From the NCBI RefSeq assembly GCF_963676685.1, contig NC_092353.1, positions 45,880,001-45,944,000 on the forward strand: a stretch of DNA of 64,000 bases, in the 5' to 3' direction. The notes beneath the pieces are model-generated. The model did not search any database. It saw nothing but the letters and a program-made list of their open reading frames with translations, and was not told where the DNA came from. This stretch comes from Mytilus edulis (Eukaryota). The position numbers were made by a program, and so were the translations under genes. Of the stretch, positions 7,640 to 53,250 are shown in pieces (position 1 is the stretch's first letter; the number at the start of each line of letters is the position of its first letter).

Positions 7640-7696
7640 CTCTCTGTAATTTCGGACACCTGCTTCACGGAATGTAGGTTTGCATCGTAGATTCTT
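7640..7696 (-). CDS. DGKZ: DGK zeta/iota-like exon, end of C1a and linker (KNLRCKPTFREAGVRNYRE)
   Basis: ttttcttatttcag acceptor, GAG|gtatat donor, 57 nt. Matches DGKzeta INFRCKPSFRESGSRNVRE. The next (C1b, HHWVH) exon was not found in 1-7639 and probably lies left of the window. Confidence 0.94.
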
Positions 7697-11052: not shown

Positions 11053-11752
11053 AATGAACTTTAGTCTTATATATATATATAGCTCTGACTGAATTTTAAC
11101 TAGCTAGCCTTGGATTGAGATAGATGTCTAAAACTCAATTTCATTCAATCTAAATACAGCTGTTGTAATTTCATACAGCAGTTCTAATTAAATTTTTAGG
11201 TGCCCAGGAGTCATATACAATTATAGGAAAGTGTGACATAAAAACAAATGTTCTGTGATCTAGTGGTGTTCACTGATTTACCCCCTTTCAAAATTTAAAT
11301 TTATGGCAAACAAAATTGATGATTAATCGTTGCTCTTTAATGCCACTTTTAGCATTCTTTGCTTCATAGCGGCCCTTAGTTTATATCAGTGTTGGTGTAT
11401 GAGTGCCTGCAGTGTGAATGTTTGTTTAGAATTTTTTTATCTGAGTATTCTATCTTTTCCGAACTAAAAAAAAAATCCTTTAAAATTAGAGGTTTTTAAA
11501 AAAATCTCTGAGTTATTCTCTGCGCTTTATTTTGGGAAATCCAAACTTTTTATTCTACGATTTATTTAAAATTCCACATTCTTCTTCGAAAAATAATTTG
11601 TAGTTGTTAGAAAATTTCGGAACTCAGAAGTCAGAAAAAAGGTCGGAGTTGTCCAAATACACCTAATTGACCTCCCAAAAGCTCTCAGCGTAGTCCAAAT
11701 ACTCCAAACTCAGAGGCCAGAAAATTATTAATTTAAGTCAATACAGATTGAA

Positions 11753-12375
11753 GTGAAACCCACAACCTCAGTGTTGACAGACCAGTGATAACAGGAGTGA
11801 AACCCACAACCTCAGTGTTGACAGACCAGTGATAACAGTAGTCAAACCCACAACCTCAGTGTTGACAGATCTAGACCAGTGATAACAGGAGTGAAACCCA
11901 CAACCTCATTGTTGACAGACCAGTGATAACTGGAGTGAAACCCACAACCTCAGTGTTGACAGACCAGTGATAACAGTAGTCAAACCCACAACCTCAGTGT
12001 TGACAGACCAGTGATAACAGGAGTCAAACCCACAACCTCAGTGTTGACAGACCAGTGATAACAGGAGTCAAACCCACAACCTCAGTGTTGACAGACCAGT
12101 GATAACAGGAGTCAAACCCACAACCTCAGTGTTGACAGACCAGTGATAACAGGAGTCAAACCCACAACCTCAGTGTTGACAGACCAGTGATAACAGGAGT
12201 CAAACCCACAACCTCAGTGTTGACAGACCAGTGATAACAGGAGTCAAACCCACAACCTCAGTGTTGACAGACCAGTGATAACAGGAGTCAAACCAACAAC
12301 CTCAGTGTAGACAGACCAGTAATAACAGGAGTCAAACCCACAACCTCAGTGTTGAAAGACCAGTGATAACAGTAG
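11753..12375 (-). repeat. 44-bp minisatellite (~14 copies) amplified from a SINE head
   Basis: Unit GTCAAACCCACAACCTCAGTGTTGACAGACCAGTGATAACAGGA; its reverse complement aligns to SINE bases ~3322-3366. Confidence 0.93.
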
Positions 12376-13204
12376 TGCTAACTGTCACTTAGACCACTCT
12401 AAATTGCCTGTGACTGAGGGAGGAATTAGTTATTCTAGGTTGCACTGCAAATTCGTAGGGATTGTGGGCGACATACAGACTTTGAATATTTCCTGCTTCA
12501 CTTGACTAAAACTTACTATTTACAAATATATACTTTTACTATGTACCCCCGGTACTCTTTTTTAATGGCCTTTCATAATTTTAAAATCATTTGCACTTTT
12601 ATAATCATAAAGAACACAGTTATCATTTCGACCTAACAATTACGACTTATAATTACAGATAAACTTTGCACAGCCTGTTATCAATACATTGAAAAATATA
12701 TAAAAAAAATCATTTTTCAGAGCTTATCTAATGATCAAATATTATAAAAAGAATGACACCATTATACTTTTCCCATCGATAAAATATGTAGGAGTTTCAA
12801 AGGCTTAAAGAGGAAATGAACATAAAAAACCGTTGGAAGAATCTAACTACTCAACTAATACACTGTAATGACCAACTATTGATAAATTGTCAATCGTTAA
12901 ACAGCCATCTGTGGCCTTGGACTGACTTAATTCTGATACCCTCTTATTGTTTCTGATCACGTTAAAATACTCAGGTGATTACCAAATTCCATGTCTTGGA
13001 AATGTTTACTAACAAATCGTTAATTGATATCAGATAATTCAGTGGAATTGACAATTGTTGTTGCTGTCCTTCTTATTTGTTGTTATTTTGATATGATTAA
13101 AAGATACAGTGAAACCTGTTTAAACTGAACCTCTTCAGGACTTAAGGTTTTCAGTATATGAAATATAAAGAAGTTTGTCGGTAACATAGCTGGATACTGT
13201 TATA

Positions 13205-21525: not shown

Positions 21526-21600
21526 CTTTTCTAAAACAGCTATACAGCCCTGATGAGCAACTATTTTACATGCAACACATTTCTTTCTTTGACCCGTTTT
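21526..21600 (-). CDS. DGKZ: DGK zeta/iota-like exon, C1a core (KTGQRKKCVACKIVAHQGCIAVLEK)
   Basis: ttttaatttcag acceptor, AAG|gtaaga donor, 75 nt. CxxC-x4-HxxC matches DGKzeta RRKCAACKIVVHTPCIEQLEK. Confidence 0.96.
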
Positions 21601-24269: not shown

Positions 24270-24353
24270 CATACAATCAGGCTCCATTGCATAGCAATAG
24301 TCCCCAGAGGCATTGGTCTCCACCCACATATGTTCACTGTTAATGGCTTGCTC
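24270..24353 (-). CDS. DGKZ: DGK zeta/iota-like exon, start of C1a domain (EQAINSEHMWVETNASGDYCYAMEPDCM)
   Basis: tttttccatttcag acceptor, ATG|gtaggc donor, 84 nt. Matches DGKzeta [21 protein letters not shown]. Confidence 0.96.
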
Positions 24354-25617: not shown

Positions 25618-25723
25618 CGACCAATCCACGGTGGATCGTAGCTCTCGTTTTCTGTATCCATGTTCTGCATGGCTAGGATGTAAGAGATTGGCATGGTTCT
25701 GTGTATTCTTTGATATGGCTTTT
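25618..25723 (-). CDS. DGKZ: DGK zeta/iota-like shared exon (KAISKNTQNHANLLHPSHAEHGYRKRELRSTVDWS)
   Basis: ttttcttttccag acceptor, TCG|gtaagt donor, 106 nt (phase 2 to 0). KAI...RSTVDWS matches DGKzeta KAITKS...IRSTVDWS. Confidence 0.95.
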
Positions 25724-31049: not shown

Positions 31050-32904
31050 AATAGTCAGTCACACTGGGGACCAGAGAAAACATAACCTTATATACGGTGA
31101 CCTTTAAAATGAGGAACAAATTGCATAAGTATATTTACAATGGGACAACGATAAGGGAGATCTGACAAGAAAAGTTTTGGGTTAATGGAGAAGACTAGTT
31201 TATCGTAGGTTTGACTGTACCATAAGGATTTTTGGTCATTTGGAGAATTTGGTAAGATGGCAGAACTTTGACTGTAGATAGATATCAGATGATGTGGTAT
31301 GAGTGCTAATGAGACAACTCTCCATTTAAGTCACAATTAGTAAAAGTAAACCATTATAGATTAAAGTATATGCAGTCTTTACAAAAAACAAGAAACACTT
31401 ATGAACCACATCAACAAACGACTAGAACCACTGAACATCAGGTTCCTGACTAAAATAGTACCAGGTAAAAACACATGCAGCGGGTTTAAACGTTTTGTCC
31501 ATATTACATTTATTCACAACTATTTCAGACTATCTGGTGAGGATGATATGGTTTTTGAATAATCGAACAAAGAATTGTTCCAAAAATATGAGCACAAATG
31601 AAAATACAGAATGAACATATATGCAGGCCATCACATGACCCTGTAATTAACACTTGATTTTAATGCAAATTAAAAAATTATCTCAAAAATTTATCTATGA
31701 ACCATAATAGCTGTAATAACTAGAACCATGTAGCTTAAATGTTTCATTACCTCTACAGAAACCGATTGAAAGGGATAACATGTTTAATGTCCCGTTAAAA
31801 CGTCCTATAATGTCCGATAATATTGATAAAGGTCAATAAAAAAGACTTGGATGAATACAGCCAATTGCAAAAAAACAAAATGGAAGAATAACTTCATTCC
31901 CAGAAGATAAAATTATCCTGTAAATCCTTAATCATTTATTAACAAATTCTGTTTCCATTTCTTATAATACAATCTAGATAGAGTCAATTCAAGTTCACGC
32001 TTTGTATTGTCACAAAATAAATTGTTTTGAACCTCAGTGATGGACGGCTCTCTTGGGACTATTGAAAGGACTGATTACAACTGTTATTATTTTCAGCATG
32101 ATATGAACACTGAAGAGAGAGAAAATAGTGTCAGTAAGTTTAACTGCACTGAATGCTGATTAATTCTTTTCTTTTGTCCAATATCAAATGATCTGCATGG
32201 TCAAAATTAAAAGTCGAAACAATCATTCAATCAACCTCTATGATAGTTATATATATATACATTTTTCATAGATTTAATATATATGGCTACTCAGGGACTT
32301 ATGACTGATCAGCTTTAGGTTGAAATCATCTATTGCTTCGTCAAAAATAAATAGAAACTTAAAAGGCTATGAGTATTTCTAAAGGTCATATAGATAGATA
32401 CATGTACCATATCAGTTCAAATTTATCAATGTAATAACAATTGCTGATTTATTGTTGGTTTTTTAATGTCAAGGGTCAAATATTTCATCTGAAAAGTCCT
32501 ATTTTACTATACTTATTACCATTTGTAAACGAGACTATACAGACAGATTTAAAGTAACAACAATGTATGCTCACTTTGTGTATCATAGAACCAAGAAAAA
32601 GACGTGTTATTGACTCAATCAGCTGAGACGTCAAGTAATGCAATTTCTGCTGAAAATCTTCTCAAGTGCACTTGAACCTAATAGACATGAAATCCATTTC
32701 AGTATCCAATACATGTTTTCAAATTTATATCAAATCTTTTAAAACTAATATATAATTACAACATCATCCAATAAATGTCTTATATAATTGGATTCAATGT
32801 CTGGTAAATCTTAATTCATATTGAAATTTAAATTCATTAAGAAATTTGAAAACTTTCCATCCAATTTTTCAGTAATACAGAGTCATACATTTAAATCAGT
32901 CATA

Positions 32905-33440
32905 GTGTGGATTATAAAGACTATCTTTCTATTTTGATGAGATAATCCTGCAATGTGGATTATGAAGTGCTAGATTATCAGCCATATTGTGGATTATAAG
33001 GACTATATTAACTTTCTATTTGGATGAGATAATCCTGCAATGTGGATTATGAAGTGCTACATTATCAGCCATATTGTGGATTATAAGGACTATATTAACT
33101 TTCTATTTGGATGAGATAATCCTGCAATGTGGATTATGAAGTGCTACATTATCAGCCATATTGTGGATTATAAGGACTATATTAACTTTCTATTTGGATG
33201 AGATAATCCTGCAATGTGGATTATGAAGCGCTAGATTATCAGCCATATTGTGGATTATAAGGACTATATTAACTTTCTATTTTGATGAGAAAATCCTGCA
33301 ATGTGGATTACGAAGCTCTAGATTATCATGCAGCCATATTGTGGATTATAAAGACTAACATTCTATTTCGATGTGATAATACTGCAATGTGGATTATGAA
33401 TTGCTAGATTATCAGCAATATTGTATTATAAAGACTAACC
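32905..33440. repeat. 87-bp minisatellite, ~6 copies, with two TGTGGATTAT sub-repeats per unit
   Basis: GATAATCCTG at 32941, 33028, 33115, 33202. Confidence 0.93.
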
Positions 33441-34719: not shown

Positions 34720-35282
34720 TAAGCCCTATGCTAGCCCTTATACCTAACTTTAAACAAGCCCTATGCTAGCCCTTATACCTATAGCTAACCTTACACATAC
34801 CCTATGCTAGCCCTTATACCTTACATTACACAAACCCTATGGTAGCTCTTATATCTAACCTTACATGAGCCCTGTGCTAGGCCTAATACCTAACTTTACA
34901 CAAGCCCTATGCTAGCCCTTAAACCTAAACTTACACAAGCCCTATGCTAGCCCTTAAACCTAACTTTACACAAGCCCTATGCTAGCACGTATACCTAACT
35001 TTACACAAGCCCTATGCCAGCCCATATACCGGTACCTTACTTTACACAAGCCCTATGTTAGTCCTTAAATCAACCTTAAACAACGGGGAGGCCCTATGGT
35101 AGCCCTTATACCTAACTTTACACAAGCCCTATGCCAGCCCTTATACCTAACTTTACACAAGCCCTATGCCAGCCCTTATATCTAACCTTACACAAGCCCT
35201 ATGCCAGCCCTTATACCTAACCTTACACAAGCCCTATGCTAGGCCTTATACCTTACTTTACACAAGCACCATGCTAGCCCTT
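34720..35282. repeat. 35-bp minisatellite, ~15 copies (AAGCCCTATGCTAGCCCTTATACCTAACTTTACAC)
   Basis: Directly visible tandem array. Confidence 0.93.
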
Positions 35283-38990: not shown

Positions 38991-39311
38991 AAATGAATTG
39001 AAATAAAAAATATTTTTTGGCTTAAAATTAAACAGTGTAGTTCTCAAGAGACAGGTTCCTAAAATGTACCATAATATAGTGTGTGTCCATTAATGACCAC
39101 TCAGACCTCCAAAAACAATCTTTTTCAAATTGCAATGATTATCAGCAAATAATCAAAGTGAAAACTGTACAACAGACCCCTTGGAATAGCATTTTTTCTT
39201 AAGGCATCAATATTGATTCTCGCCAAAATAAATGTTTTATTTTCACTAATATTAATTGGAACATAAATCAGAAATGAGGTAATACCAAAACTTCAAATTT
39301 CTGAAATATAG

Positions 39312-41172
39312 GTCAACTGAAATAGCTTATATAGTCAAATACATTACCAACTTAAAACTATTCTACAATAGTGTAAACACACAGAGTATTAAAGAGAAGC
39401 AACATATACCTGAATGGGATATTGCAACTCATAAGTCGAAAATAGTCAACTGAAATAGCTTATATAGTCAAATACAACCAACTTAAAACTATTCTACAAT
39501 AGTGTAAACACACAGAGTATTAAAGAGAAGCAACATATACCTGAATGGGATATTGCAACTCATAAGTCGAAAATAGTCAACTGAAATAGCTTATATAGTC
39601 AAATACAACCAACTTAAAACTATTCTACAATAGTGTAAACACAGAGTGTATTATAGAGAAGAAACATATACCTGAAGGGGATATTCCAACTTATAAGTCG
39701 AAAATAGTCAACTGAAATAGCTTATATAGTCAAATACAACCAACTTAAAACTATTCTACAATAGTGTAAACACACAGAGTATTAAAGAGAAGCAACATAT
39801 ACCTGAAGGGGATATTGCAACTCATAAGTCGAAAATAGTCAACTGAAATAGCTTATATAGTCAAATACAACCAACTTAAAACTATTCTACAATAGTGTAA
39901 ACACAGAGTGTATTATAGAGAAGAAACATATACCTGAAGGGGATATTCCAACTTATAAGTCGAAAATAGTCAACTGAAATAGCTTATATAGTCAAATACA
40001 ACCAACTTAAAACTATTCTACAATAGTGTAAACACACAGAGTATTAAAGAGAAGCAACATATACCTGAAGGGGATATTGCAACTCATAAGTTGAAAATAG
40101 TCAACTGAAATAGCTTATATAGTCAAATACAACCAACTTAAAACTATTCTACAATAGTGTAAACACAGAGTGTATTATAGAGAAGCAACAATATACCTGA
40201 ATGGGATATTGCAACTCATAAGTTGAAAATAGTCAACTGAAATAGCTTATATAGTCAAATACAACCAACTTAAAACTATTCTACAATAGTGTAAACACAC
40301 AGAGTATTAAAGAGAAGCAATATATACCTGAAGGGGATATTCCAACTTATAAGTCGAAAATAGTCAACTGAAATAGCTTATAAGGCTTATATAGTCAAAT
40401 ACAACCAACTTAAAACTATTCTACAATAGTGTAAACACACAGAGTATTAAAGAGAAGCAATATATACCTGAAGGGGATATTCCAACTTATAAGTCGAAAA
40501 TAGTCAACTGAAATAGCTTATATAGTCAAATACAACCAACTTAAAACTATTCTACAATAGTGTAAACACAGAGTGTATTATAGAGAAGCAACAATATACC
40601 TGAATGGGATATTGCAACTCATAAGTTGAAAATAGTCAACTGAAATAGCTTATATAGTCAAATACAACCAACTTAAAACTATTCTACAATAGTGTAAACA
40701 CACAGAGTATTAAAGAGAAGCAATATATACCTGAAGGGGATATTCCAACTTATAAGTCGAAAATAGTCAACTGAAATAGCTTATATAGTCAAATACAACC
40801 AACTTAAAACTATTCTACAATAGTGTAAACACACAGAGTATTAAAGAGAAGCAATATATACCTGAAGGGGATATTCCAACTTATAAGTCGAAAATAGTCA
40901 ACTGAAATAGCTTATATAGTCAAATACCTAACCAACTTAAAACTATTCTACAATAGTGTAAACACACAGAGTATTAAAGAGAAGCAACATATACCTGAAG
41001 GGGATATTCCAACTTATAAGACGAAAATAGTCAACTGAAATAGCTTATATAGTCAAATACAACCAACTTAAAACTATTCTACAATAGTGTAAACACACAG
41101 AGTATTAAAGAGAAGCAACAATATACCTGAAGGGGATATTCCAACTCAGAAGTCGAAAATAAACTGACAACA
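39312..41172. repeat. 131-bp satellite-like array, ~14 copies
   Basis: GTCAACTG at 39312, 39445, 39576, 39707 and onward; very high identity between units. Confidence 0.97.
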
Positions 41173-42744: not shown

Positions 42745-43444
42745 TATGCAATCATTTTAACTAAGAAGAACCTGCATAATTTAAAATATTTAATCGTCTA
42801 CCTTTAAATATTTTTAGGAACTGTGCAACAAATAGTTACACTTAAATATGAATCAAAAACTAGTGATTTGGACAAGGGAGATAATTTTATCATATACATA
42901 AGTATTGAAACATCATGGCCCTTAAGGGAAAAGTTTCATAATTTATTAAAATTCAATCATAAATCCATTTCATAATATAGGTATTCATGTCTCATGGGTT
43001 TTCATACTATTAAGAATGCATTGTGACATCAATATTTCCTTTGAAAAAGCATGCATAGTACGAATTCATATGGCGTACATTTCAAGCATAATGATCTGAC
43101 CATATATAAAATTTATTTCAATTTATTTCCTTTCATTACTTGTACACTAAATAAACTATGGGTTGAGTTCAATATCGTTCATGCAGTTGAACCTCCACCC
43201 CTTTTATCCTGGGTCAGAAATCCCCCTGTTAAACCCTTGTAAACCATCAACAGTTTTTATAAAGGTTTCTAAAACAGAAACTTTACTGTCAAGTCGACAG
43301 TTTTGATAGATATAATTACAACCTGAATACTTTAGAGCATTGAAAAAAAATTGAAACTAACAGGAAAGGATTCATAAACTGATAATGGAGTAAATGAAGC
43401 AAACTTCAGAATCTATGTTTTAAGAGTAAGCTGACAAAACTTAC

Positions 43445-44445
43445 GCATGACCAGGAGAAGTCTGAATTGCTTTGTAACGAGATTCCTCTTCAGTCGGCAG
43501 ATTAACATCGACAGAACTTGATCGGATTTGCTTTGAACTGTCTGAATCTTCATCAAAGGAAGCTTGTCTTTTGACCATTGGCCGAGTCGTATTTGACACA
43601 TTGTCTGAAGTTGAGCCTTTACATAAACATCCATCGAAGGACGTCGATCGTTGTTGTTTGATCACGGGTACTTGTAAAGTGAGCGCATTTGTATAATCTC
43701 CTTCGGTTGAATTATCTATACTTGAATCATTTCCTGTTGGATTTAATTCTATATAGTCATCATCCGCGAAATATAAATTTTCCGATTTTGAAAATGTATT
43801 TTCATTTGAGCAAATTTCTGTTTTTGCATTCTGTCCATTTGTCTTTGTTTGTTCACTAATATATTCGCTATTTTCAGTTTCTTCTGTATCAGTTTCCGAT
43901 TCATATGAGCTATCTGAAAAATCTTCATCTGATGAGCTAAAACTTCCACTTGAGGAAAACAAATTTTCGTCAGCTTCGTTTCCAAGGTAAAATTTACTAT
44001 GTGTATGTTTTTCGATCTCTTCTAAACTGTCTTTATAAGCTTGTTCAACATATACACAGTGTACACATAATTTTGGAATTTCTATTGAAGGTCTATGTTT
44101 TTGATATCTACTTAATTTAAAGCTTTTCCTCCTCCTTTCTTTAATTCCAGGATCGGAAAGATTCTCATCGGACGATGTACTCCATGAGCGATCTCCACCT
44201 GCGTTACATGAATCGAAAGATTGACAGCGCCGCCCTGGTCTAGGAACAGCTAAACAGTCCTTCTCTTTATGTAAGCTAGCCGAATCAAAACTTGAGGATC
44301 GCCCCCTCTGTTCGAGTCCAGGAACCTCTAAACATTTTATATCCTTCGGTTCATCAATAGATGTGGTCCTTTTTTGTCTTGGTAAACAAATTTTTGGAAC
44401 TTCTAAGGATGGAGATCCTGAACGTGCTCGTTTAAAGATGTTCAT
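43445..44445 (-). CDS. DGKZ: Type IV diacylglycerol kinase, long alternative first coding exon (~334 aa Ser/acid-rich N-terminal extension, rdgA-like)
   Basis: Only long ORF in the window (track 43441-44463). First ATG at 44445 (MNIFKRARS...). The apparent stop lies inside a perfect donor CATGC|gtaagt. The phase-2 end joins the 25723 exon in frame (SPGHA-KAISK). SLEVPK, RSxSFD and RSSSVDV.LPT motifs resemble the long N-terminus of insect rdgA-type DGKs as I recall it. Confidence 0.85.
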
Positions 44446-46284
44446 AATTCGATAATCAAACAAATATAAATTTATGAAATTTTACCTCCATAATTGTTGA
44501 CCACTGTGTATATCTAAAATCCATGACTGCTTCAATGACTATCAACTGTCACACTGTTTTGTTACTGTGTCTCATGTTTTCAATATATCCTTGATATTTT
44601 TATAGTTGGTTTTACAGAATCAATATTGTGTCAGCTATTACCGCACTGTAATTAGTTCATTCTCATTTAAGGCAATTAGATCACAGAATTATCTTTGGGT
44701 GAAAAAAAAATATTTTCTGACTTATTTCCAATTTCCTTTGTAAAACTGCTACGCTAATTTCAGTCTAGTGCATTTAAACCAGTTAAACTACTAAATAACA
44801 TTTCAGAATTACAATCTGCCGAGATGAACGTCCAAGTACAAATGTACATTTCCCCATTGTCAATGATACAATTATTTCCAGAATGAAAGAAAACGGTGTA
44901 AAAAATGACTGCAAACTTCCGATCCGTGTATCAATCTTAGAATCAATAACCTATAGTAAACACTGTCAATAGTAAAGGTACCGTACGTAGCTCACATTGA
45001 CGTCTACTTCTATGAAATAAGCGATAATTACCCTATTGTTTCTCAATTCATAATCCAATACAACCTTACGATACTGTTTTTTTATAAAAGTAAAAAAAAT
45101 AACATGCAACAGTCATTGACCTAAGTTTATGTCAACGATCAGTCTCATCAACAAGTCAATTTAATTCTTAAAGCTGTTTATACTAATCTTTCATGCAGAC
45201 AAGTCCTCAAAGACATAATGTAAACAGAATTAATAAATTCCAAGGTACCGTTGATTTTTAGAATCCTGTTTACCTCTACAGGTGCATTCCACTGAGTAAA
45301 TAAAAAATAAATATCACGTTGTCAACAAAAACATTTTCAATATTTATATCCATATAAGTTCAACAAAGTACTTTCTCACAAAACATCAGCTTCAAACTTA
45401 AAGGTCTCAAAACATCAATAGTCATTAAAAAATAAAATTCTAAAATCATCTGATATTTACATCTATAATTAATAACACATGTTGTACATTTCTCCCGATA
45501 ATTTTTGATTTCACCATCATATTTTCCATCTATATATCAGAAGAGAATTTTTCAAATCCATCAACAGTAATGATTTTCTTAATTAATCCAGGGGGTTATA
45601 ATTTCCTGCTAAACTCTGTTATAAATTCCTTGATCAGCTGATCTTCATACAGCTTAAGATCACAACCACAAACTGTAACACTCAGTCGTCTGTTTCCTAT
45701 ATTTTTCCAAGTTTATTATGAAAACAGAAGAATTGTCGAAACAATAAGACTTCGTAGGCAGATAATGATTTACATTACATACGCAACATCTTGGATGCAA
45801 TTTCATCTTAGTAAATATAGATGATCTATTAGTGAAATACCTATATTGTTAATCCAAAGTTATTAGTCCACATAATGAAGAAATTTCTCTAACATGTATA
45901 TTTTTCTGACCTGGGAAAATTAGATCCAGTTATATCATGGGCTGTACATGTGATATATATTGGTATGAACAATAAACAACAGTTACTATTTGTTTAAAAT
46001 GCAAGAGCAGATAATTAAATAAAAACTCAATTTTGGGGGGTTGCTCAGACTTTAAAGGGGTAACCTTAAAAAATGCAGTGTTGAAATTATAATTGCTAAG
46101 GTGTTTTTAAGGTACTAAATTATTTGATTTTACTTAATGTCCATTGGCAAATATTTCATGAACATTCATTTATAGCAATATACCCAGGTTCTCTATCAAT
46201 TCAGAATTCAATACTGAATTGAATCATAATTGCAATTTTTGGCACATGATAATAATGTACAATAAATTAACATATTTTCTTTAT

Positions 46285-52019: not shown

Positions 52020-53250
52020 AACTCTTCTACATGTATAGATCATTAAAGAATTAATCACCAACTTTTCTTATAAGGGGAAATAACACAGTATGTTTTCTTC
52101 TACATATATAGATCATTAAAGCATTAATCACCAACTTTTGTTATAAGGCTAGATAACACAGTATGTTTATAAAGTAAACTCTTCTACATGTATACCGGTA
52201 GATCATTAAAGAATTAAACACCAACTTTTCTTATAAGGGGAGATAACACAGTATGTTTATAAAGTAAACTCTTCTACATTTTTTGACCATTAAAGCATTA
52301 ATCACCAACTTTTGTTTAAAGGGGAGATAACACAGTATGTTTATAAAGTAAACTCTTCTACATGTATAGCGCTAGATCATTAAAGCATTAATAACCAACT
52401 TTTGTTATAAGGGGAGATAACACAGTATGTTTATAAAGTAAACTCTTCTACATATATAGACCATTAAAGCATTAATCACGAACTTTTGTTATAAGGGGAG
52501 ATAACACAGTATGTTTATAAAGTCAACTCTTCTACATGTATACCGGTAGATCATTAAAGCATTAATCACCAACTTTTGTTATAAGGGGAGATAACACAGA
52601 ATGTTTATAAAGTAAACTCTTTTACATATATAGACCATTAAAGCATTAATCACCAACTTTTGTTTAAAGGGGAGATAACACAGTATGTTTATATAGTAAA
52701 CTCTTCTACATGTATAGCGGTAGATCATTAAAGCATTAATCACCAACTTTTGTTTAAAGGGGAGATAACACAGTAAGTCTATAAAGTAAACTCTTCTACA
52801 TGTATAGATTATTAAAGCATTAATCACCAACCTTTGTTATAAGGGGAGATAACACAGTATGTTTATAAAGTCAACTCTTCTACATGTATAGATCATTAAT
52901 GCATTAATCACCAACCTTTGTTATAAGCGGAGATAACACAGTATGTTTATAAAGTCAACTCTTCTACATGTATAGATCATTAAAGCATTAATCACCAACC
53001 TTTGTTATAAGGGGAGATAACACAGTATGTTTATAAAGTCAACTCATCTACATGTATAGATCATTAATGCATTAATCACCAACCTTAGTTATAAGGGGAG
53101 ATAACACAGTATGTTTATAAAGTCAACTCTTCTACATGTATAGATCATTAACGCATTAATCACCAACCTTTGTTATAAGGGGAGATAACACAGTATGTTT
53201 TTAAAGACAACTCTTCTACATGTATAGATCATTAAAGCATTAATCAATAA
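52020..53250. repeat. 84-bp minisatellite, ~14 copies (preceded by an ~85-bp duplication at 51860-52025)
   Basis: AACTC at 52873, 52957, 53041, 53125, 53209; the unit contains AAGGGGAGATAAC. Confidence 0.95.

Follow-up and report, generated by a model that had tools for sequence, protein, structure and literature searches.

Conserved tandem units of LxVP motifs and phosphosites in an alternative N-terminus of a Mytilus type IV DGK

In Mytilus edulis, one alternatively used exon encodes a 333-residue tail with which the long isoform of a type IV diacylglycerol kinase (DGK) begins. In this tail, LxVP motifs of the kind used for docking to calcineurin are followed, at tightly kept distances, by serine phosphosites of the R-x-x-S type, and the motifs are conserved among homologues. 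We put the chance slightly above even that the tail is a multivalent array of calcineurin docking sites and phosphosites, the latter likely written by CaMKII or PKA; calcineurin binding alone, judged from sequence, is graded somewhat higher than this whole mechanism. The gene and its long isoform are annotated already. What is new is the occurrence of known motifs in an undescribed, ancient tandem layout on a known enzyme. The window, by which we mean the whole stretch of DNA analysed, comprises 64,000 nucleotides (contig NC_092353.1, positions 45,880,001 to 45,944,000), and plain coordinates below refer to it.

The exon and its gene

The exon lies on the minus strand, with an ATG at 44445, a GTAAG donor at 43444 and a single open frame between them, and is present in one copy in the genome. 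It encodes the 333-residue N-terminus of the long isoform that is present in the RefSeq models: the first 333 residues of three M. edulis models are identical to its translation, and the N-terminus of an annotated DGK zeta-like isoform from Mytilus trossulus is 99% identical. The RefSeq Mytilus DGK zeta-like long isoforms are XP_071134960.1 and XP_063403309.1. The parts of the gene considered here are listed below; further exons lie beyond the low end of the window and were mapped in the next 20 kb.

44446..44862 (-), likely 5' leader; contigs of runs X1 and X3 continue unspliced to ~44860
43445..44445 (-), long alternative upstream exon of the gene for DGK zeta/iota/rdgA, coding part; 333 codons plus 2 nt, phase 2
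25618..25723 (-), first shared exon, whose acceptor is common to at least three upstream exons
24270..24353 (-), shared exon, start of the first C1 region
21526..21600 (-), shared exon within the first C1 region
7640..7696 (-), shared exon, end of the first C1 region

The full protein that starts with the 333 residues (P0071) contains C1, catalytic, accessory, DGKI and ankyrin domains according to Pfam, which detected no EF hand in it. The first-pass annotation had called the enzyme a type IV DGK without EF hands, and this domain set, with its C-terminal ankyrin repeats, bears that out. The type IV DGKs comprise zeta, iota and insect rdgA, and homologous N-termini occur in insect records of eye-specific DGK; a human long isoform, DGK zeta2, exists (PMC7555651). 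The tail itself matched no family in Pfam and no entry in PDB sequence searches, and the ESM Atlas gave no family, its best scores of 0.84 and 0.85 being under the lead level of 0.9.

Splicing and alternative use

Evidence for splicing was taken from contigs of four public runs, none of which is recorded as RNA; the spliced contigs show them to be RNA-like. In run X1, an 804-nt contig spans 43445-44218 and continues with 30 nt of 25694-25723, breaking exactly at the predicted donor (43445) and acceptor (25723). Such a junction contig comes from one run of the four, and its 30-nt short side is one letter under the 31-letter bridging criterion; in the other three runs, parts of the long exon are covered and no junction contig is listed. 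The same join of 43445 to 25723 is made in the RefSeq models, and the same fusion of exon and DGK occurs in annotated molluscan and nemertean proteins; a profile search for longer fused forms returned at least 11 molluscan DGKs and one nemertean DGK among 7,977 candidates. The proposed splice to 25723 is thus borne out by the X1 contig and by the RefSeq models.

The acceptor at 25723 is also used by two other upstream exons, in four of four and two of four runs. These lie outside the window, upstream of the long exon by ~55 kb (G000:C10:45979757) and ~24 kb (45948481), and match annotated N-termini of 33 residues. Because they join the same acceptor, the long exon is alternative, as had been claimed. 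It was also claimed to be a first exon selected by promoter choice; that it is a first exon with its own promoter is likely, and only likely, because contigs cannot show a transcript start. Contig depths in X1, at 5.2 where the long exon is joined and 21.4 for another of the upstream exons, cannot rank the isoforms.

Some observations on the starts of these transcripts may be added. Nine upstream ATGs stand in the likely leader (44446-44870, minus strand) and could restrict how much of the long isoform is translated. The two short upstream exons (L001:1595-1498 (-) and L002:1595-1499 (-)) encode 33-residue N-termini and reach the shared exon in the same phase; one N-terminus of the pair has a Cys-Cys pair that could be acylated, and the L001 exon is itself preceded by acceptor-like sequence. 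Presumably, one of them resembles the end of the human DGK iota first exon and the one with the Cys-Cys pair that of DGK zeta1. If so, a layout with multiple first exons predates the protostomes.

Motif units along the tail

The motif strings listed in the first-pass annotation were all recovered on the minus strand where it had placed them, with distances from the Leu to the Ser (L-to-S) of 15, 13, 11 and 12 in its four modules. The protein has four modules of LxVP followed by RxxS; in 20,000 shuffles of its sequence the average was 0.002, and none gave more than one. In the order of the protein, the elements of the tail are as follows.

44353..44406 (-), slot 0, LEVP..RTTSID, aa 14-31; L14 not conserved
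44284..44331 (-), module 1, LEVP..RSSSFD, aa 39-54; L-to-S 13
44212..44253 (-), module 2, LAVP..RCQSFD, aa 65-78; L-to-S 11
44074..44121 (-), module 3, aa 109-124, in Mytilus without an intact docking half; contains RPSIEIP
43999..44085 (-), IEIP-KLCVHC and predicted helix, aa 121-149; C127, H129 and C130 invariant
43696..43998 (-), acidic Ser-rich linker, aa 150-250; weakly conserved, predicted disordered
43633..43677 (-), module 4, LQVP..RSTSFD, aa 257-271; L, V, P, R, S and D each in 50/50
43552..43584 (-), RPMVKRQASFD, aa 288-298; fits the CaMKII high-affinity consensus in full
43465..43545 (-), module 5 with the conserved block at the end, aa 301-327; RSSSVD..LPT....Y.A

A phmmer search gave 57 homologues of the tail; the alignment set comprised 69 sequences, from which 10 fragments were dropped and 51 sequences were kept at <70% identity. 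The named homologues come from bivalves, gastropods, a cephalopod, annelids (Capitella, Owenia, Lamellibrachia), a nemertean and three insects (Stomoxys, Anopheles and Callosobruchus), the insect ones being labelled eye-specific DGK. Most others are unnamed, and no vertebrate-named homologue was present among the records whose names were checked. Over the 51 homologues, the 43 positions claimed as motifs have a mean identity to Mytilus of 0.75, compared with 0.23 at other positions and 0.11 in the linker at aa 136-250, which upholds the earlier expectation that conservation is confined to the motifs, insect rdgA-type N-termini included. The homologues were collected by similarity to the exon, so that the set favours motif-bearing sequences; collection of this kind would not by itself yield free x positions and fixed spacing.

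Five units make up the ancestral layout. Three of them (L39, L65 and L257) are intact in Mytilus; in the units before S120 and before S311 its docking half has decayed, which counts against the calcineurin reading. Conservation at module 1 is L 45/50, V 44/50, P 48/50, R 49/50 and S and D 50/50, and at module 2 it is L 47/50, V 45/50, P 48/50, S 43/50 and D 46/50. For the decayed module 3, homologues retain L109 in 35/50, P112 in 43/50 and the RxxS at S120 in 48/50; at module 5, whose LxVP half has also decayed in Mytilus, P304 is found in 40/50, and the end block that follows (RSSSVD..LPT....Y.A) is kept at 88-98% at R, S, D, L, P, T, Y and A. The L-to-S distance of module 4 is 11-13 in all 51 sequences and 11-12 in 50 of them, and that of module 5 is 10 in 19 of 27. 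Slot 0 had been listed first among the LxVP modules and does not belong with the conserved ones, its leading position being Leu in 4/50 and Phe in 19/50; it resembles a duplicate of the [LF]EIP[KR]LC motif that precedes the CxHC. A further linker motif, I-T-[LFV]-T-[LV], occurs in some insects and annelids and not in Mytilus.

Fit to calcineurin LxVP docking

The x position of LxVP makes no contact with calcineurin (PMC5156906). Modules 1, 2 and 4 keep L, V and P at 88-100%, and in module 4 these three are present in 51/51 while x is spread over at least six residues; retention of L, V and P with a variable x is as expected if x makes no contact. LxVP occurs 192 times in the 51 homologues (4.5 in shuffled sequences), at least once in every one of them, and LxVP followed by RxxS occurs 172 times (0.4 when shuffled). 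An RxxS-hydrophobic-D/E site stands within 30 residues of 170 of the 192 motifs. In these 170 units, L-to-S is 10 in 27, 11 in 56, 12 in 58, 13 in 17 and at least 14 in 12, that is, 10-13 in 158. Nine full-length proteins have 0-2 LxVP motifs in the ~900-1000 residues of their shared part, against 3-6 in the ~300 residues of the exon. AlphaFold2 predicts the modules to be without secondary structure, at low pLDDT. Genes for calcineurin A and B are both found in the Mytilus genome.

LxVP-phosphosite layouts similar to those of PKA RII and TAK1 are also familiar from DRP1 and TRESK. In RII, an LxVP lies N-terminal to R-x-x-S in a disordered region with an L-to-S of 13 (PMC3582496); in TAK1 the distance is 17, and the LxVP and a basic phosphosite bind jointly (PMC13022171). 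RII and TAK1 have one unit each, whereas the DGK tail has 3-5 (in 45/51 sequences), with mostly shorter spacers and a fixed Asp at +2. In calcimembrin (C16orf74), a composite LxVPxIxIT has an L-to-T of 11 and a spacer of seven residues after the Pro (PMC12612047). The claim that LxVP followed by RxxS matches the layout of known calcineurin substrates holds to the extent that an L-to-S of 10-13 overlaps the 13 of RII and the 11 of calcimembrin. Modelling has placed the minimum distance from LxVP to phosphosite at 9-15 residues, with six or fewer unlikely (PMC3582496). Counted after the Pro, the spacer is at least nine residues in 29 of the 170 units (two of four in Mytilus), 7-8, much as in calcimembrin, in 114, and six in 27. 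The majority of spacers therefore fall below the modelled minimum, a point against calcineurin.

Agreement with the extended consensus [NQDESRTH][YTDFILV]LxVP (PMC5156906) is poor. None of the four Mytilus motifs fits it, nor do more than 44 of the 192 in the homologues (0.23, with 0.19 expected), although 35/51 sequences have at least one that does; the expected residues are over-represented at position -1 (0.59 against 0.35) and polar ones at -2 are not (0.44 against 0.54). Since the extended expression misses 16 of 25 validated peptides (10.1101/632547), this weakens the case for calcineurin and does not refute it. A bare Lx[VLI]P is frequent, with 13,014 human matches, and most such matches do not bind (10.1101/632547).

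Phosphosites

The phosphosites of the tail have a hydrophobic residue at +1 and Asp at +2. Acidic residues just after a phosphosite are generally negative for calcineurin, which speaks against the calcineurin reading. The mode I consensus of 14-3-3 proteins is R-S-x-pS-x-P. A 14-3-3 mode I reading, part of the original proposal, fails on these residues: +2 is Asp, and RSxSxP is found three times in comparison with 279 occurrences of RxxS-hydrophobic-D/E. Both the hydrophobic +1 and the Asp at +2 are favoured by CaMKII (PMC9336311), and as a matter of sequence preference the +2 Asp fits CaMKII rather than 14-3-3. Against this, a Ser near the acceptor is disfavoured by CaMKII (PMC9336311), and RSxS is the usual form in the tail.

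The site at aa 288-298 (RPMVKRQASFD) combines Arg at -8, a hydrophobic residue at -5, Arg at -3, Gln at -2, a hydrophobic residue at +1 and Asp at +2. It matches the pattern R/K-x-x-hydrophobic-x-R-Q-x-S/T/A-hydrophobic-D/E of the CaMKII partners GluN2B, Tiam1 and dEAG (PMC9336311). Its shuffle probability, P = 0.0014, applies to a motif chosen after being seen. The full consensus with Gln at -2 occurs in 18/51 homologues, against 0.11 when shuffled. It stands at differing positions in bivalves, annelids and insects, and its acceptor is often Ala in insects and annelids, as in Tiam1.

The PxIxIT question and the CxHC helix

The first-pass annotation had taken RPSIEIP for a PxIxIT-like second docking motif. 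This assignment was rejected: P119 is found in 2/50 homologues and I121 in 1/50, the terminal Pro is excluded by the expression P[^PG][ILVF][^PG][ILVF][^PG] (10.1101/632547), and the string is the phosphosite half of the decayed third unit, which reads RRxS[L]EIP in homologues. A strict PxIxIT occurs in none of the 51 sequences. Overlapping RPSIEIP is P124-K-L-C-V-H, which fits two published expressions (PMC5156906, 10.1101/632547) and has the form P[KR][LIVF]C[IVLM]H in 42/51 sequences; it is possibly a better PxIxIT candidate. The overlapping layout L-[ED]-I-P-[KR]-L-C-[IV]-H resembles that of the composite motif of calcimembrin (PMC12612047), from which it differs in ending in His, in having invariant cysteines, in running into a predicted helix and in belonging to an enzyme rather than a microprotein.

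The candidate also overlaps the invariant C127, H129 and C130 and the start of that helix (128-149), the only element of the tail that AlphaFold2 folds confidently. Because these residues are invariant and the helix is confident from residue 128, a role of the CxHC in metal binding or acylation is as plausible as a PxIxIT role.

A proposed mechanism and its alternatives

We suggest that the tail, which is predicted to be disordered, most likely makes the phosphorylation state of the long isoform Ca2+-dependent. Each LxVP would bind the pocket between the two calcineurin subunits (CNA/CNB), which is open only in the active enzyme, and is paired with a Ser that a basophilic kinase, likely CaMKII or else PKA, would phosphorylate and that Ca2+/calmodulin-activated calcineurin would dephosphorylate. 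The Arg at -3 and the Ser would reach the calcineurin active site as in RII, TAK1 and calcimembrin. The R-x-x-hydrophobic-x-R-Q-x-S/A motif would hold CaMKII, which would write the sites with hydrophobic +1 and Asp +2. Location or activity of the DGK would then follow from how the tail is phosphorylated, so that the Ca2+ arm of PLC signalling would feed back on DAG removal in cells that express the long isoform. No link between a DGK and calcineurin docking was found in the non-subscription literature that was searched, and DGKs are absent from the main text and two supplements of PMC5156906 and from the main text of 10.1101/632547. Nor was any function for the exon-encoded tail found described.

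A wider version of this scheme, which we regard as tentative and rather doubtful, is that calcineurin units, a CaMKII anchor and a composite PxIxIT together form an ancient Ca2+-decoding module of protostomes, in which DAG removal after PLC activation depends on how CaMKII and calcineurin balance each other. When fly RDGA is lost or mislocalized, TRP channels are deregulated and photoreceptors die (PMC6559011), and by homology with the insect records and by analogy with reviewed work on fly rdgA (PMC6559011), the tail may be linked to vision. Were the decoding module real, it would supply the missing Ca2+ feedback on fly RDGA at the contact between ER and plasma membrane.

Alternatively, LxVP-x(6-9)-S-hydrophobic-D may be a two-part ligand of some other partner, a kinase docking surface or a phospho-reader, its likeness to calcineurin motifs being incidental. 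We think this unlikely, while granting that several features would suit it. The spacing is tighter and shorter than the calcineurin model has it, as at modules 4 and 5. The +2 Asp is invariant (D54 and D271, 50/50), and calcineurin is not known to need it; nor is there a known calcineurin need for the hydrophobic residue that lies 5-6 residues past the Ser (L58, 45/50). The poor match to the extended consensus points the same way. However, LxVP had no partner besides calcineurin in the literature examined, the sites do not fit 14-3-3 mode I, and calcimembrin works at an L-to-T of 11 (PMC12612047). Still less probable, in our estimate, is that the tail is a scaffold or competitive buffer for calcineurin in the manner of AKAP5, RCAN or calcimembrin, with the DGK bringing calcineurin and CaMKII to a membrane site for the benefit of neighbours and its own activity little changed. 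This would explain why there are several LxVP copies though calcineurin has one pocket; short spacers may allow binding without turnover, the possible composite of LxIP and PxLx[IV]H (42/51) recalls calcimembrin, and the CaMKII motif has Ala pseudosubstrate versions in insects and annelids, which recall Tiam1. On the other side, a Ser of its own at fixed spacing from each LxVP suits a substrate, and the PxIxIT candidate overlaps the invariant CxHC and the start of the predicted helix.

We give very little weight to a last possibility, that the motifs form an arm for autoinhibition or targeting, regulated by phosphorylation, which folds back on the C1, catalytic or ankyrin domains of the same enzyme and is anchored by the CxHC helix through bound metal or S-acylation. 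The invariance of C127, H129 and C130, the confident helix at 128-149 and the conserved end block adjoining the C1 domain would all be accommodated, but the motifs match known motifs for outside partners, and the tail is unordered in a full-length AlphaFold2 prediction (a cephalopod long isoform) whose mean pLDDT of 48 is too poor to count.

The calcineurin array remains our preferred reading. Type IV DGKs are without EF hands, and the conserved array offers specific residues and two candidate partners for Ca2+ sensing. Its fixed spacing from molluscs to annelids and insects makes the question of Ca2+ sensing testable with peptides and with point mutants in Drosophila, and a tail in which 3-5 LxVP-phosphosite units with short spacers follow one another would probe both the modelled minimum distance and the role of multivalency.

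Other features of the locus and genome

Elsewhere in the gene, the exon that carries the end of the second C1 domain (L009:55-1865 (-)) has its 3' end and donor repeated ~20 times in an 80-bp tandem array in the following intron, and these copies may serve as alternative donors or as decoys. In the C-terminal disordered region between the catalytic and ankyrin domains (P0002, P0010, P0012, P0089, P0090), L-V-F-x-F..P-V-T-P-P and E-N-L-L-x-P are conserved; the nemertean counterpart of the former reads LxVP and then PxLxF, recalling the composite motif of calcimembrin. A frame of >900 codons resembling a LINE-type reverse transcriptase (L008:7151-9901 (-)) lies beside or inside the calcineurin B gene. 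Intronic minisatellites at 39303-41161, 34721-35282, 32895-33437, 52096-53246, 11752-12376 and 1-756 have periods, in that order, of 131, 35, 87, 84, 44 and 29/82 bp, and are ordinary bivalve repeats.
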